A stretch of 64,000 nt of DNA from an uncultured Chloroflexia bacterium (GTDB lineage Bacteria; Chloroflexota; Dehalococcoidia; DSTF01; JALHUB01). The translations under genes and the position numbers were made by a program. Below, one piece after another: positions 44,724 through 52,295 of the stretch (its first letter is position 1; the number at the start of each line of letters is the position of its first letter). The notes beneath the pieces were generated by a model. It was not told the origin of the DNA, did not search any database, and saw only the letters and a program-made list of their open reading frames with translations. The stretch covers positions 1,760,001-1,824,000 of the forward strand of contig OY969814.1 of assembly GCA_963703345.1 (NCBI GenBank), given 5' to 3'.

Positions 44724-47192
44724 TCAGTGGTTGCCAAAGGGGTTAATCGGACAACCAGCCTCGTTCGCGGCCTCAAACATGTTCGTTGTCGCCGCATAGT
44801 CGCCGCTGTCGAACGCCGCTTGGAAGGCGGCAATTACCTCCGCCGGCGTATCGATTGCCGGTGGAGGAGAGGTGTAAGGGTTGGTGGCATTCAAGAGAGC
44901 CGCGACGGCCTGCCGGCCCAAGGCGCTCAAGCCACCGCCACCGTACCAAAGGACGTGAAGCAACGGAGGGTCTCCGGCAAACGCATTACGCCCAAACACG
45001 CGGTTGAAGGAATCTGACGGCCTATAGAGCGTCTCCAGCCAGGGCCAGGTCCATCGCCTCCAGAAGCCAAGCGAGCAACCGGTCACTCGTGAGGGTGTTG
45101 TGGCCGGCGTGGGCGTTGCCGTCTTCGTTGGTTTCGGCGTTACCGTTTGACACGGCGGTTTTGGCGTTGGCGTCGCCGTCTTCGTCTTCATCGCCGTCGG
45201 CGTAGATGTCTTCGTTGGTTTCGGCGTTGCCGTCTGACACGGCGGTTTTGGCGTTGGCGTCGCCGTCTTCGTCTTCGTCGGGGTCGGACTCGCCGTATCC
45301 GTCGGCGTCGGCGTAGCGGTATCCGTAGGCGTCTGAGTGGCAGTGTCGGTCGGCGTTGGCGTCCACGTGTCCGTCGGCGTGTTCGTCGGCGTGTTCGTCG
45401 GCGTGTTCGTCGGCGTGTTCGTCGGCGTGTTCGTCGGTGTGTTCGTCGGCGTATTCGTCGGCGTGTTCGTCGGCGTATTCGTCGGCGTGTCCGTCGGCGT
45501 GTTCGTCGGCGTGTTCGTGATCGTCGGCGTGTTGGTCGGCGTGATCGTCGGCGTGTCCGTCGGCGTGTTCGTCGGCGTGTTCGTGATCGTCGGTGTGTCC
45601 GTCGGCGTGTTCGTGATCGTCGGCGTGTTCGTCGGCGTGTTCGTGATCGTCGGCGTGTTGGTCGGCGTGATCGTCGGCGTGTTCGTCGGTGTGTTCGTCG
45701 GCGTGTTCGTGATCGTCGGCGTGTTGGTCGGCGTGATCGTCGGCGTGTTCGTCGGTGTAATCGTCGGCGTGTTCGTGATCGTCGGCGTGTTGGTCGGCGT
45801 GATCGTCGGCGTGTTCGTCGGTGTGTTCGTCGGCGTAATCGTCGGCGTGTTCGTGATCGTCGGCGTGTTGGTCGGCGTGATCGTCGGCGTGTTCGTCGGT
45901 GTGTTCGTCGGCGTAATCGTCGGCGTGTTCGTCGGCGTGTTCGTCGGCGTCGCTGTAGCGGTATTCGTCGGGGTGGGAGTAGGCAGGCAATTGTAGAAGT
46001 CAAGATCACTGCTGTTGCCGTCGGCCGCAACCGTCCGCTCGTAGCAGACACCATAGGGCAGATGCAAGCCGGTACCGCTGGAAGGCGTTGGGGCGCTCTG
46101 TATGCGACCGGGCTGCGCCGACAGGTCCTCGCAGATGGCGTAAGTGCCGGACGGCACGTTCTCGAAAGTGTAGACGCCCGTGTTGTCGGTGGTTGTTTCC
46201 CCCGCCAGCGTTTCGCCGGGAAGCTGCAGCAGCTTGATGGGCACGCCGGCGAGCGGCGAATTGATTCCGGCACTGCCGTCGCAGTTCTGATCGTCGTACT
46301 TGTGGCCGGAGAGGTTGACGCAGATGTCCGCCATCTCCAGCGATATCTCACTGTAGATGTCAGGAAGCGTCGAAGCGTCCTGGACGATACGCGTGTAGCC
46401 GGGGCTCTTGGCGATGTCCGTGAGAAGGGAGGTGTCAAGCTCGTCGGGGTTGCACGACATGGGATCGCAGGGCAGGTGATAGGCGCCGCATGTCGAGCTG
46501 CCGATGCCGACGGTGTAGACGGTGTCAGCGGCGGCGTGAAGGCCCGGGATGGCGTTCTCTGTGTCCGCTCGCCTCTGATGAGTCGCGTCGCAGGTTGTGC
46601 CGTAAGTAGGATCGCCGTCGGCGTAATTTCTGCCGTCTGAGAGGACGACGACGGCCTTGTAGGAGCCGTTAGGGCCGCCATGGACGTGCGCATTCAGGTC
46701 ATTCGTCGCCCTCGTGAGGGCGGGAGCGATGTAGGTGTCGGTTTGTGGCGGAGGATTGGTGATTCCGTTGACTGCCGCACGAATGGCGTCGGCGTCGCTG
46801 CTGAAAGGGATGACGAGATTGATGGGCGCCCCTCCGTCGAAAGTCATCACCTCGACGTGGTCGTTGCCCAGGCTGTGACCGGAGGGCCCGCCGGCAATCG
46901 CGTCGACAAGCGTTACCGCGGCTATCTTAGCCCAGTAAAGGCGGGTCTTTGGCGGGCTGCCGCTGTAGTTGGTGATCATGCTGCCTGTCCGGTCGATGAT
47001 GATGACCACGTCGAGGTCGGCCGGGACGAGACATTGAGCCGGCGGAGTCGCATCAACGACTCCCGCGGACTGCGACATGGTGGCCGCGCTGCCCCTGGCC
47101 GAGTTGACGATACATAAGGCGACAACCGCGGCAAGCACTATGATGAACGAGGGCACAACTAATCGAGCCCGGAGAAGCTTCTTGCGACTCAT
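44724..47192 (-). CDS. Exported VWA-domain surface protein with CnaB/SdrD-like domain and long Thr/Pro stalk
   Basis: MIDAS DRTGSM...VVLSDG; SGHKYDD...[11 protein letters not shown]; long TPTN run; C-terminal GCSLGFW...AVAALLNA domain. Confidence 0.85.
45110..45975 (-). repeat. Coding tandem repeat (12-nt TPTN-type units, interspersed TITN units) plus a duplicated [14 protein letters not shown] block
   Basis: GTCGGCGTGTTC and variants repeated many times. Confidence 0.95.
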
Positions 47193-47508: not shown

Positions 47509-48069
47509 CTGATCATCGCCGACACGGGCAACAACGTCGTCCGCTGGGTCCACGGCCCTTCCGGCCTGATCGGTACCCTTGCCGGCACGGGAACCGCCGG
47601 TTTCTCCGGCGACGGCGGCGTTGCCGTTCAGGCCAAGCTCAACGGCCCGGAGGCCCTGGCGTCCGATGGTTCCCTCGCTGTCCTCATCGCCGATACTCAG
47701 AACAACCGGCTGCGCCGCGTCACCTTCGGTGATGCCACGATCACCACCGTCGCCGGCGGCGGCAGCGGCTGCGATGCGAATCAGACGGCGCCCTACGACG
47801 GCTGCCCGGCGACGGACGCTGTCCTCGATCATCCAGCGGGAGTCGCTCTCGGAAGTTGCCAGACCTCGGATACCGGCAGTCAGGCTATCCGCGGAATCGA
47901 TTCGTGCACCGGGTTGCCCGTCGGCGGCTTCACCGGCTCGACAGGTTGCACATACGGCACGACGGCCACTATCGACGTTGTATTCATGCTCCTTCCTCTC
48001 GGGCTGGTCCTCAGCCGAAGGCGCATCAGATCCATGTTCGGACAGATTCGGAGGGTGAGCAAGCTATGA
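47509..48069 (+). pseudogene. 5'-truncated NHL-repeat surface protein fragment
   Basis: Frame lacks a start codon; LIIADTGNNVVR...LAGTGTAGFSGDGG...IADTQNNRLRRV; ends in a TM helix + RRR with ATGA overlap to the next gene. Confidence 0.8.
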
Positions 48070-50072
48070 GCTTCGTCAGGCGCGGGGCCCGAACCGTCTT
48101 GGCGTTCGCAATCTCGGCAGCCGTCCTTGGTGCGGCCGCAAGCGCCCTAATGGCGGTATTCCCCGCATCGGGAAGGACGGCCGTCGCCACCACCCCCTAC
48201 CCTACGCCGGCTCTGAAGTGGGACGTGTCCATGTCGGACAAGATACCCACTCCCGCTATAACATGCCCGCAGCAGCCGCCGGGGGACAATGATGGAAACA
48301 TCGACCCGGGCGAGTCTCCCAACGTGACCAACGAGTTTTGGATTCAGCCGAACGGTGGTGTGGGCGGAGCTCAGCCCATGTTTGATAGAGCAAATGTCAT
48401 ATGGATGACGGGGCCGCTTCTTGGGAGCGATGTGACGGCGCCGCAAGACGGCTTGGCCCCCAAGCGGGTCAATACGGTGGGCGCCAAGGTGGGCATGGTC
48501 AGCATTCAGATGCAGTCGAACATGTTCACGGGAACGTTGACCACAAACAACATCGATGATATCGCCAGCGCCGCAGACTCCACGCTTAACGGCCAGCCGC
48601 CGCGCTGTGGAGCCGACGTCACCGGCGACGGCCGTCCGGACACGCTTGCTCTTACGGACTCCTTCGAGCTTTGGAACGCCGCCTTCCACACGGACGGCAG
48701 CGACCCCATCATCGAGTACGGGGAGGCTCAGGCGCCGGACAGTGCATTTCCGTCCGGCTGCGACGTGAGTGGCAGTACTCCGAATCATGCGTGCGCTCCC
48801 CGGGCCATACGCGGACTACCAAGGCCCATACTGGCCCTCGAGACCGCCATGGGCTTGACGTCGGCTTCCAGGGTGAGTCGCGCCTACGGTATCGCCAAGC
48901 TTCCCATCGTCGGCGGCATCACCAGTAATCTCGACGTCAACTTCCTGGTCTACAGCCTGCATAACAAAGGGACAAACGGCTACTTGAGTGTCACCCTCAT
49001 CCAGTATCCGGGCCTGCCCTCAGCAGATCCAACCAACGCGAACTACAACCCGCTGTCGCAGAGCGTCCAGACCTGTCCTCCCTATTGGAGCTCGGCCACC
49101 GTCTACGGCGTCACTTCCAGCCCTGATTTCGATGAGGACGGAGTGTCTGACCTAGCCGTGACGTCGGAGATCAACCGCCTAGTTCAGCCGCAAACGGTGA
49201 CGGGGAAGTCCTACGACTACTACATCGAGACCTCCATGGCCGCCGACTACGACGGCGATGGGATTCCCGCCTATGCCGACCGCTGTCGCACCGATCCCGC
49301 TTCGGGCAGCGCCACCAGCGACAGCGACGGCGACGGCCTATCGGGGACCTGCGACACGAACGGCCAGAACAACACTCCAGCGAGTGGGAGCTGGAAGAGT
49401 AAGCCGCCCTGGGACGACAACCAGGACGTGGACCATGACGGGATCCTGAACTCTGTGGACAACTGCCCGACCGCCTGGAACCCCGACCAGAAGGACACAG
49501 ACGGCGACAGCGTGGGGGATGCCTGTGACCCTGCCCCCACAATCCCGGGCGACGGGCACGGCTACGCTAGCCCGGCCCCCGGCATGTTCGTCCGCTATGT
49601 CGACATCTGCCGGGATCCGTGGACTGTCGGCCAGCCTGAGCTGAGCGGCAGCGGCGACCCCGGTCGACAGTGCTTGAAACAAGACGGCGTGATCACGAAC
49701 TGGCAGGACTCCAATAATGACGGCGTGCCCGACTACCTAGACATGAGATCCTTAACCCCACCCGGCCCCCTTCTGGCTGACTGCCACAGCGATAGCGACC
49801 ACGACGGATTCGTGGATGCAATGGAGGCGGCGCCCACTAATGTGGAGCCCTGTCCGGCATTCGGGTTTGCCAAAGCCAGCGACCCACTCGATGCCTCCTC
49901 TCCAGGAGGTGGGGTAGCTGTTGGCGGGATAGCGGAGCCACCCACCGAATCAGGCTCCTACGCTGAACATGGTTCCGCGCTTCCCTTCAGTGTCCTCGCC
50001 GCGCTCATGCTTCTCGCCGCCGTCGCCGTCCTCATCGCGTTCGGAGACTGGTACCGTCGCCGGCACAACTGA
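48066..50072 (+). CDS. Secreted surface protein with thrombospondin type-3-like Ca-binding repeats and C-terminal membrane anchor
   Basis: Signal peptide; DYDGDG, DVDHDGILNSVDNCP, DTDGDSVGDACD; VAVGGIAE + TM helix + RRRH. Confidence 0.85.
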   Translation: MSFVRRGARTVLAFAISAAVLGAAASALMAVFPASGRTAVATTPYPTPALKWDVSMSDKIPTPAITCPQQPPGDNDGNIDPGESPNVTNEFWIQPNGGVGGAQPMFDRANVIWMTGPLLGSDVTAPQDGLAPKRVNTVGAKVGMVSIQMQSNMFTGTLTTNNIDDIASAADSTLNGQPPRCGADVTGDGRPDTLALTDSFELWNAAFHTDGSDPIIEYGEAQAPDSAFPSGCDVSGSTPNHACAPRAIRGLPRPILALETAMGLTSASRVSRAYGIAKLPIVGGITSNLDVNFLVYSLHNKGTNGYLSVTLIQYPGLPSADPTNANYNPLSQSVQTCPPYWSSATVYGVTSSPDFDEDGVSDLAVTSEINRLVQPQTVTGKSYDYYIETSMAADYDGDGIPAYADRCRTDPASGSATSDSDGDGLSGTCDTNGQNNTPASGSWKSKPPWDDNQDVDHDGILNSVDNCPTAWNPDQKDTDGDSVGDACDPAPTIPGDGHGYASPAPGMFVRYVDICRDPWTVGQPELSGSGDPGRQCLKQDGVITNWQDSNNDGVPDYLDMRSLTPPGPLLADCHSDSDHDGFVDAMEAAPTNVEPCPAFGFAKASDPLDASSPGGGVAVGGIAEPPTESGSYAEHGSALPFSVLAALMLLAAVAVLIAFGDWYRRRHN

Positions 50073-50169: not shown

Positions 50170-50424
50170 ATGGGCTTCGTCGCGACGGAGACAGTGCGGA
50201 CGGCTCTTGGCGAGTTCGGCAGGGTTTACGAGTGTCTCACGCCGTACGAGCGGAAGGAACTCGTACGGCTCGTCCTGCGCCGCGTCGAGGTGAACGACCG
50301 ACAGATCGCGATGGAACTGTACCCCTTCGACTTGCCACAAACGGAGGTGGCCCAGAGCAGTTTACGCTCTGAGCCACCAAACTGGCTCCCCGAGCAGGAC
50401 TCGAACCTGCAACCTAGCGGTTAA
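50170..50424 (+). pseudogene. C-terminal remnant of a probable large serine recombinase reading into the tRNA att site
   Basis: LTPYERKELVRLVLRRVEV pattern; tail WLPEQDSNLQPSG is encoded by antisense tRNA-Asn; no catalytic domain visible. Confidence 0.65.
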
Positions 50425-50451
50425 TCCGCCTCGGGCGGACCCGCTCTACCG
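50383..50451 (-). repeat. Partial tRNA-Asn copy (D-arm to CCA) with palindrome-disrupted anticodon arm
   Basis: 42 nt identical to the tRNA 3' half, then TCCGCCTCGGGCGGA, then CCCGCTCTACCG. Confidence 0.9.
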
Positions 50452-50690
50452 CTTAGATGGTCAGCAAGCAAGCGCCGCCCGCGACCGGTCTTCAGTTGGC
50501 GCTCACGGCCCATCGCCTCGCCGCGGCTGGCGAAATGCTCGGAGTAGACTAGATGCCAGGGTCCCCGGCCACGCGTCCAGCCAGCCTCGTCGTTCTGATG
50601 CCGCGCCACACGGCGGTCGATCTCCGCTGTCGAGCCGACGTAGAGGCGTCCCTGCGCATTCCTAAGCACGTAGACGGAGAATCTTGTCAC
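50421..50690 (-). CDS. Small GIY-YIG nuclease (UPF0213-like)
   Basis: VYVL...LYVGST...RR..H...T....PW.LVYSE...EA..RE.QLK; 89 aa. Confidence 0.9.
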   Translation of the reverse strand: MTRFSVYVLRNAQGRLYVGSTAEIDRRVARHQNDEAGWTRGRGPWHLVYSEHFASRGEAMGRERQLKTGRGRRLLADHLSGRAGPPEAD

Positions 50691-50703
50691 GAGAGGTTGA
50701 GAT

Positions 50704-50779
50704 TGGCTCCCCGAGCAGGACTCGAACCTGCAACCTAGCGGTTAACAGCCGCCCGCTCTACCGATTGAGCTATCGGGGA
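50704..50779 (-). tRNA. tRNA-Asn (GTT)
   Basis: Intact 76-nt cloverleaf; loop CTGTTAA; 3' GCCA. Confidence 0.95.
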
Positions 50780-51092
50780 GCACCCGATATCCATCTATAT
50801 TCCGCTGGCCATCGAGCCACGTCTAGACCTAGCGGTTAATCCGCCTCCGGCGGACCCGCTCTACCGATTGAGCTATCGGGGAGCACCCGATATCCATCTA
50901 TATTCCGCTGGCCATCGAGCCACGTCTAGACCTAGCGGTTAATCCGCCTCCGGCGGACCCGCTCTACCGATTGAGCTATCGGGGAGCACCCGATATCCAT
51001 CTATATTCCGCTGGCCATCGAGCCACGTCTAGACCTAGCGGTTAATCCGCCTCCGGCGGACCCGCTCTACCGATTGAGCTATCGGGGAGCAC
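50752..51092 (-). repeat. 103-bp tandem repeat (about 3.3 copies) derived from tRNA-Asn
   Basis: Units start at 50752, 50855, 50958 and 51061 and are identical as read. Confidence 0.95.
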
Positions 51093-51107
51093 TTCGGCCC
51101 TCTGGCG

Positions 51108-51181
51108 TGGCTGCCGAGCCAGGACTCGAACCTGGACTAAGGGATCCAAAGTCCCTGGTGCTACCATTACACCACTCGGCA
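51108..51181 (-). tRNA. tRNA-Gln (TTG)
   Basis: Loop CTTTGGA; 3' GCCA. Confidence 0.94.
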
Positions 51182-51244
51182 GCGGATGAGTCTATCCGCA
51201 CATCAATGAAGGCGGGTTCTCCCGCCTTCCGCCTGATCGTGAAC

Positions 51245-51333
51245 TGGTGCCGAAGGCCGGGATCGAACCGGCACGAGGGTCGCCCCTCAACAGTTTTTGA
51301 GACTGTCGCGTCTACCTGTTCCGCCACTTCGGC
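51245..51333 (-). tRNA. tRNA-Leu (CAA)
   Basis: Loop CTCAAAA; long variable arm; 3' ACCA. Confidence 0.94.
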
Positions 51334-51335
51334 TT

Positions 51336-51410
<75 letters not shown>

Positions 51411-51464
51411 CCCCGACTCTGCCGCTGCGAACGCAAGCAGCGTCGCCCTTCACAGAGCGACCCT

Positions 51465-51493
51465 ATTATAGTCAAAGGCAGGTCGCTCGACAA
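51465..51493 (-). promoter_or_regulatory. Sigma70 promoter of the Gly-Leu-Gln-Asn tRNA operon
   Basis: Minus strand TTGTCG-17 nt-TATAAT. Confidence 0.7.
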
Positions 51494-51518
51494 GCAAGCG
51501 GCAGCCGGACACGCGCTG

Positions 51519-52295
51519 CTACCGCCCTTTGTAGACCGGCGGACGCTTCTCGGCGAAGGCCTTCGGGCCCTCCCTGCCGTCCTCAGTGGTGTGGACGAAC
51601 AGGGAGAAGAGTGACTCCAGTCGCAGGCCCTCCATGAGCGGAAGGTCGAGGCCGCGAAGGGCGGCTTCTTTGACGAGGCGGACCGCGATGGGGGCGCTCT
51701 CGTTGATGCGCTGCGCCAGCGCCATCGCTTCCGCCATCAGCTCGCCTCGCGCGACGACGTAGTTTACCAGGCCGATACGGCACGCCTCCTGGGCGTCGAT
51801 TCGCTCGCCGGTGAACATGAGCTGGAGCGCGACGCCGGCCGGGACGACGCGCGGCAAGAGCTGCGTGCCGCCGTTCCCCGGTATGATGCCGCGGGTCACC
51901 TCCGTCAGGGCAAAGGAGGCGCTGTCGGCGGCGATGCGGATGTCGCAGGCAAGCGCCAACTCGAGTCCACCTGCAAGGCAGTAGCCATTCACGGCGGCGA
52001 TGATCGGCTTCCAGAGCTCGATGTTGCGGAGAAGGGAAGCCATCGTCAGGCCGGCAGGGTCGACGCCCGGCTCGCGTTGCAGGTCGCTCATCTCCTTGAG
52101 GTCGGCGCCTGCGGAGAAAGCCTTGTCGCCGGCGCCGGTGAGGACGAGCGTGCGGGCATCCTCGTCGTCGCGGAACCGCAGGAAGGAGTCGCGAAGAGCC
52201 TCGCGCACCTCCGTGTTGATGGCGTTCATCGCCTCCGGCCGGTTGAGCGTAAGGACGACCGTGCGGCCGCGCTTCTCGTAGAGAACGACGGGCAT
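51519..52295 (-). CDS. Enoyl-CoA hydratase/isomerase
   Basis: LNRPEAMNA, AFSAGADLKE, AAVNGYCLAGGLELALACD. Confidence 0.93.
   Translation of the reverse strand: MPVVLYEKRGRTVVLTLNRPEAMNAINTEVREALRDSFLRFRDDEDARTLVLTGAGDKAFSAGADLKEMSDLQREPGVDPAGLTMASLLRNIELWKPIIAAVNGYCLAGGLELALACDIRIAADSASFALTEVTRGIIPGNGGTQLLPRVVPAGVALQLMFTGERIDAQEACRIGLVNYVVARGELMAEAMALAQRINESAPIAVRLVKEAALRGLDLPLMEGLRLESLFSLFVHTTEDGREGPKAFAEKRPPVYKGR

Follow-up and report, generated by a model that had tools for sequence, protein, structure and literature searches.

The window, as we call the whole 64,000-nucleotide stretch of DNA that was analysed, carries a minus-strand tRNA cluster in which the tRNA-Asn gene is interrupted by a 636-bp insert. 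Upstream of the cluster lies a sigma70-like promoter match (TTGTCG-17-TATAAT, 51465..51493, minus strand), a match to the consensus only and the one promoter-like site in 50200-51600. It is followed on the same strand by tRNA-Gly(GCC), tRNA-Leu(CAA) and tRNA-Gln(TTG) (51108..51410), the native cluster common to relatives, and then by three units of 103 bp: unit 1 at 50986..51088 (hairpin 51046-51060), unit 2 at 50883..50985 (hairpin 50943-50957) and unit 3 at 50780..50882 (hairpin 50840-50854). Next come, still on the minus strand, an intact tRNA-Asn(GTT) gene (50704..50779), the gene for an 89-aa, single-domain GIY-YIG nuclease (50421..50690; PF01541, E 4e-14) and the right junction (50425..50451), composed of 12 nt of tRNA (positions 17-28) and the hairpin TCCGCC-CGA-GGCGGA (50425-50439). 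Beyond it are the native tRNA-Asn 3' part (positions 35-76; 50383..50424, minus strand) and a trailer common to relatives (50170..50382, no strand assigned). The insert itself holds the remainder of the array after the head of unit 1, the complete tRNA-Asn, the nuclease gene and the second hairpin junction. An 84-aa ORF remnant on the plus strand (50170-50424) runs backwards into the tRNA-Asn 3' end; it has no Pfam match, may be a serine-recombinase end, and probably represents one end of an integrated element of greater age. The window also encodes two long predicted surface proteins, one with vWA, SdrD-B and a long Pro/Thr/Asn repeat (44724-47192, minus strand) and one with a TSP3 repeat (47856-50072, plus strand). 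A GC-rich hairpin in the gap between tRNA-Leu and tRNA-Gln (51207-51228, minus strand), kept in same-genus relatives, is a possible processing or attenuation signal.

The initial annotation had described the array as three identical 103-bp units, and both Tandem Repeats Finder (50752-51092: period 103, 3.3 copies, 100% matches) and a letter-by-letter comparison bore this out. Its account of the unit also held in our alignment: read on the minus strand, each unit consists of tRNA-Asn positions 1-28, a 15-nt palindrome (TCCGCC-GGA-GGCGGA) that takes over from CGGCTG at positions 29-34, the first anticodon base among them, then positions 35-47 and a 47-nt spacer. The units are flanked, as claimed, by tRNA-Gln (51108-51181) on one side and the intact tRNA-Asn on the other, and the array is bordered by a 32-bp direct repeat (51061..51092, minus strand) made of native tRNA-Asn 1-28 and 4 leader bases. 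The far hairpin, beyond the nuclease gene, had been said to differ by 2 nt in its loop; the loops differ by 1 nt (CGA against GGA), the other mismatch lying in the flank. The TGGC/GCCA hairpin that the annotation placed in the spacer is present but nothing out of the ordinary, since at least one 4-bp hairpin appeared in 45% of 5000 spacer shuffles. At this chance level we rejected it as a mimic of the T arm; it is also absent from the MFE fold of the unit.

Both junctions of the insert have lost tRNA positions 29-34 (6 bp) and gained a 15-nt hairpin. The tRNA cluster was matched in all 60 relatives searched, and in most of the loci retrieved from them the intact tRNA-Asn directly adjoins the leader on one side and the trailer on the other. 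None of the conclusions draws on the unpublished genome G045. The trailer follows directly after an intact tRNA-Asn in 5 of the 14 relatives compared. Empty sites from the same genus gave a trailer identity of 176/200 (G003, locus L008) and 181/200 (G007, locus L009), and at the empty sites L010, L016 and L019 the first 40-46 nt of the trailer were matched, 37-40 of them identical. Moreover, one soil contig connects 50424 to 51061 via exactly the 6 missing bases. The placement of the trailer in relatives and the junction in the soil contig indicate that the native tRNA-Asn gene was split. Judged from these alignments, the original gene survives as two halves, a relation that the initial annotation had overlooked: its 5' part is the head of unit 1, and its 3' part is the copy past the nuclease gene. 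The trailer predates the insert. The intact copy inside the insert is the sole tRNA-Asn among the 54 tRNA calls in the genome, and ARAGORN and Rfam called only 50704-50779 as tRNA-Asn at the locus.

We found no second copy of the 47-nt spacer in the window's genome. An alignment hinted that the spacer could be a decayed tRNA 3' end, a candidate rejected for lack of significant likeness (p 0.42-0.61). The leader of a donor relative was suggestive as a source, the end of the spacer being common to L011, L013 and L025, and was not adopted: the likeness to relatives' leaders was weak, with p 0.04-0.05 before correction in 3 of 9. The locus's own leader was likewise set aside as a general source; among 22 loci it was clear only in L058 and L094, the likeness in L075 was weak, and the match in L073 proved to be a further unit.

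The GIY-YIG gene is physically joined to the right junction, its last codons crossing the hairpin and its stop codon being supplied by the tRNA remnant. Residues Y7, Y17, G19, R27, H31 and E63, which we take to be the GIY-YIG active-site positions, are invariant across 49 aligned proteins. The predicted structure comprises one domain (pLDDT 82.8), and a fold ranking of this model put UPF0213 proteins and Slx1 ahead of I-TevI and UvrC. UPF0213 (PDB 1zg2, 1ywl) and Slx1 (6seh, 7cq2) gave the best matches in sequence and in fold; the UPF0213 entries are titled hypothetical, whereas Slx1 is a structure-specific repair nuclease, eukaryotic and larger than the 89-aa protein. NCBIfam returned nothing above cut-off for this protein (TIGR01453 reached 19 bits against a cut-off of 56), and the CDD label for proteins like it is presumably cd10449.

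Searching a collection of genome contigs with a DNA pattern that fixed both tRNA flanks, we recovered inserts at the hairpin position in 60 genome stretches, by title 19 from Chloroflexota and 41 from Planctomycetota, a count in which the pattern itself restricts the phyla and which includes three pairs of stretches that share an assembly. Because the flanks were fixed, the constancy of the insert position is partly built in; L240 and L243, found via the protein, have different boundaries. In 66 of the 77 inserts the stem is perfect over 6 bp or more, and the hairpins are mainly of three types, starting TCCGCC, TCCTTC and TCCCG. Together with three metagenome loci the set comprises 63 loci, 52 of which carry a GIY-YIG gene on the same strand. 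Their commonest arrangement is tRNA, nuclease and plugged 3' copy, found in tandem in L046, L075 and L084. Upstream units occur at 20 of the 63 loci in 1-4 copies, two to four of them in 6 loci; a single unit accompanies the full layout in L097 and L015, three units are present in L052 and four in L039, and L064 is not an independent case, its unit being the same as in L015. Across loci the units measure 77-157 bp and their spacers are largely unrelated.

The annotation had proposed looking for such arrays near GIY-YIG genes elsewhere, and a GIY-YIG gene lies within 500 nt downstream at 15 of these 20 other loci. It had also named arrays apart from such genes as part of what would count against its idea, and these do occur: at 4 of the 20 there is no GIY-YIG gene in a downstream flank of at least 500 nt. 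The genomes of such nuclease-less loci contain a GIY-YIG relative elsewhere in 2 of the 3 searched, and that of L060, possibly incomplete, gave no match to the family. These four loci and the L060 genome suggest that the units need not rely on an adjacent nuclease.

When we started from the protein, 44 of the 251 genomes of the class gave a match. Among the best 29 non-self loci found in this way, which partly overlap the DNA-pattern set, 20 lie no more than 500 bp from a tRNA (by a rough estimate, about 3% would do so by chance), 16 have duplicates of tRNA fragments and 14 have an abutting hairpin, the last count being one without a matched control; 9 have no intact tRNA nearby. The tRNA genes involved are those for Asn, Ile, Ala and Val, and tandem upstream units recur in L242, L252 and L258. 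More distant small GIY-YIG genes (L247, L248, L251, L254, L257, L259, L261) do not lie at tRNA genes; their flanks carry other hairpin-like repeats, which likewise recur.

The T-loop region is altered in 22 of the 51 matches of 3' copies, most with a hairpin. Such second hairpins were seen in the dead 3' copies of L023, L037, L039, L041, L044, L061, L064, L084 and L091-L093, and in L093 the T-loop hairpin is of a different type from the one in the anticodon arm. They suggest repeated site-directed insertion of hairpins.

The window's genome contains a second locus of this kind, a tRNA-Ser(GCT) gene split by two GIY-YIG genes (C1:1147895-1148968; L001 1359-2432), with CCCGCC-type hairpins in the T-loop of partial copies and an intact tRNA in mid-locus. 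Dispersed intergenic copies of the TCCGCC-type hairpin with similar flanks, REP-like in appearance, lie at C1:2042075, 2074448, 2137080 and 2156782. Exact copies of the 3' halves of tRNA-Val(TAC), Lys(TTT), Pro(GGG) and Gly(CCC) are also numerous across the genome; they start at about positions 27-41, resemble att scars and are partly clustered, for example at C1:1252833-1258632, 1919362-1921910 and 1028807-1040849.

We consider it probable that the insert is a selfish nuclease-hairpin element lodged in a tRNA gene, and that the array is its gene-less left scar, recently multiplied. This agrees with one branch of what the initial annotation had proposed, nuclease-linked insertion and recent amplification, the units and the GIY-YIG gene lying in one insert; the mimic-RNA branch fares worse, as discussed below. 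By analogy with the Ssn nucleases, the small protein would bind its own hairpin where the DNA is single-stranded or extruded, and would nick beside it. Repair through the short tRNA homology flanking the hairpin (12-28 nt on the 5' side, 13-42 nt on the 3' side) could then insert or duplicate the segment, and the survivors would be only those outcomes that keep one intact tRNA-Asn. A single unit between 32-bp direct repeats could expand by slippage or unequal crossing-over, possibly nick-primed, and the identity of the units suggests that the expansion was recent. The cutting and amplification steps are those that we infer. We also put forward, tentatively and with well under even confidence, a broader proposal: that an 89-aa GIY-YIG domain may alone mobilise a minimal selfish element, recognising its own hairpin, opening tRNA stem-loops (anticodon arm, T-loop, D-loop), writing the hairpin into the break and keeping the host viable by duplicating the tRNA, with the gene-less units as non-autonomous, self-amplifying derivatives comparable to REP arrays and their transposases.

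Three other explanations have to be weighed against the nuclease-hairpin element. The least improbable of them holds that the hairpin is an independent REP-like mini-element which settles in the spare tRNA copies that ordinary duplications leave behind; the nuclease would act in trans or be a passenger, and the array would be a neutral minisatellite. Congruently with this, the genome has 14 copies of TCCGCC-N3-GGCGGA where 1.65 would be expected, and 10 of them are away from the tRNA-Asn locus; many 3' copies have the second T-loop hairpin; the left and right hairpin loops differ; and some loci have units with no adjacent nuclease. It leaves unexplained, however, why this nuclease clade is sited at tRNA genes (20 of 29), why the nuclease reading frame ends in a hairpin remnant and why the hairpin type matches the nuclease lineage, and we regard it as unlikely. 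On the tree of the nucleases, built after one duplicate of the window's protein had been dropped and the tails trimmed, the hairpin type follows the branching with 4 changes, the minimum, L043 and L080 having been lumped into type A by prefix despite their differing hairpins; with few alignment columns and with kin sharing labels, this fit speaks for joint inheritance only and not for co-evolution. The triplication could also be an assembly artefact with one real unit, since the copies are 100% identical and, among the records listed in four runs (assembled contigs only), none spans the array. Against this, the assembly of the window's genome is one contig of 2.28 Mb, and arrays with non-identical copies occur elsewhere (L039, L052, L092). 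In the short-read run X1, possibly the source sample, a 133-nt contig with an exact unit match has a depth of 11.9, about three times that of its neighbours, and the other near-identical contigs listed have depths of 2.6-6.9. Depth in X1 is low and contig depth is no copy number; such a contig could also come from one unit at low depth, so that only its depth counts, as a weak pointer to about three copies. Taken together, we find an artefact very improbable.

The remaining explanation, a form of the mimic-RNA idea of the initial annotation, sees the units as working tRNA mimics that are cut from the operon transcript and serve the nuclease as guides or act as decoys for anticodon nucleases. 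The units lie on the operon strand downstream of the promoter-like site, and for one unit the predicted fold has an acceptor-like stem of 7 bp, a complete D arm and two further arms (z -1.9), an acceptor-like pairing also present in L015. There is precedent in some tRNA-linked repeats of E. coli, which passages of PMC8144298 describe as processed RNAs that bind Hfq and CsrA. On the other hand, the units have no CCA or processing end, no T arm, no anticodon and no conserved acceptor stem; at the locus only the four tRNAs scored above the Rfam gathering thresholds, and no family covers the unit. An acceptor-like helix of at least 6 bp is missing in 16 of 18 units, and the pairing bases are present in the plain leaders of the unit-free loci L011, L013 and L025. 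Since neither the spacer, nor the T-arm-like hairpin, nor the acceptor-like pairing is conserved across loci, and unit length varies as well, the mimic-RNA reading is disfavoured; what is conserved, as far as the sequences tell, is the DNA junction and not an RNA shape. Moreover SsnA, the nearest tested analogue, neither bound nor cut RNA in the experiments described in parts of PMC11893778. We hold a functional RNA to be quite unlikely. The units are probably transcribed, given the promoter-like site before tRNA-Gly, the lack of any terminator match between it and the units on the minus strand, and the essential tRNA downstream; no promoter was found within a unit, and they would probably be passengers of the tRNA operon that are then degraded.

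The array alone is probably a by-product, and it is the nuclease-hairpin element behind it that appears widespread. If correctly read, the element would account for many 'pseudo-tRNA' arrays of uncultured bacteria. Its loci give matched sets of protein, hairpin and target, with three hairpin types on one tRNA site, which would allow a simple in vitro test, and they are possibly a source of very small sequence-specific ssDNA nucleases.

Integrative elements that target tRNA genes (attL/attR) also interrupt them near the anticodon arm, an intact copy being restored. Here, in contrast, the intact copy lies inside the insert, a hairpin has replaced 6 bp at each junction and there is no clean att duplication; the 636-bp insert contains no integrase or recombinase gene and no ORF long enough for one. 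Tandem repeats with a tRNA-derived piece are known inside tRNA operons of E. coli, where, according to passages of PMC8144298, one to five of these TLRs repeat 18-19 bp of the tRNA 3' end downstream of the gene. Unlike them, the units of the window repeat the 5' part, lie upstream of the intact gene, are plugged by a hairpin and belong to a nuclease insert. Phage T4 SegB, a free-standing GIY-YIG gene among tRNA genes, is another partial parallel: it cuts double-stranded DNA at a target that includes a tRNA T-loop motif and homes between phages (abstract of PMC2330249). There is no word there of a split tRNA, a hairpin plug or an array, and the gene studied here encodes a bare catalytic domain in a bacterial chromosome. 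Characterised GIY-YIG proteins join the catalytic domain to a separate DNA-binding extension, as parts of PMC11893778 state; of the features of homing endonucleases such as Seg and I-TevI, this extension is absent from the 89-aa protein, which is catalytic domain only, and occupied and empty alleles of one site are present.

The closest resemblance is to the Ssn nucleases (cd10448), which combine a single-domain GIY-YIG gene of about 90 aa with hairpin repeats that flank it and are dispersed in the genome. SsnA, of 94 aa, binds and cuts only ssDNA near the hairpin repeat flanking its gene, and the authors liken the hairpin-gene-hairpin arrangement to insertion sequences and REP/transposase pairs (Chenal et al. 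2025, PMC11893778, in part). The protein of the window falls within the single-domain size range of about 90-100 aa at 89 aa, and its locus has four hairpins, of which one overlaps the gene's 3' end; by analogy, we infer that it would bind and cut single strands specifically, as Ssn does. However, the hairpin TCCGCC-N3-GGCGGA differs from the Ssn NTS consensus quoted in PMC11893778, and the present element is lodged in tRNA genes with duplication of the tRNA, whereas the word tRNA is absent from the main text of that paper. As proxies for Ssn we took 6 GIY-YIG proteins beside an NTS motif, from 133 NTS-bearing viral loci. In an unrooted tree these six clustered together at the end of a long branch (100/100), apart from the 53 tRNA-linked rows, and their C-terminal motif differs from that of the tRNA-linked proteins. 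In listings of the openly accessible literature, read as far as the start of each abstract, we found no description of tRNA-lodged GIY-YIG/hairpin cassettes; the supplements of PMC11893778 list SRM contexts, which may bear on novelty. In view of the different C-terminal motif and the separate group of proxies, we regard the element as Ssn-like by anatomy and do not file it as a member of Ssn. It is apparently an undescribed variant of nuclease-hairpin elements, and through it the pairing of nuclease and hairpin known from Ssn would reach a distinct clade, one resident in tRNA genes.
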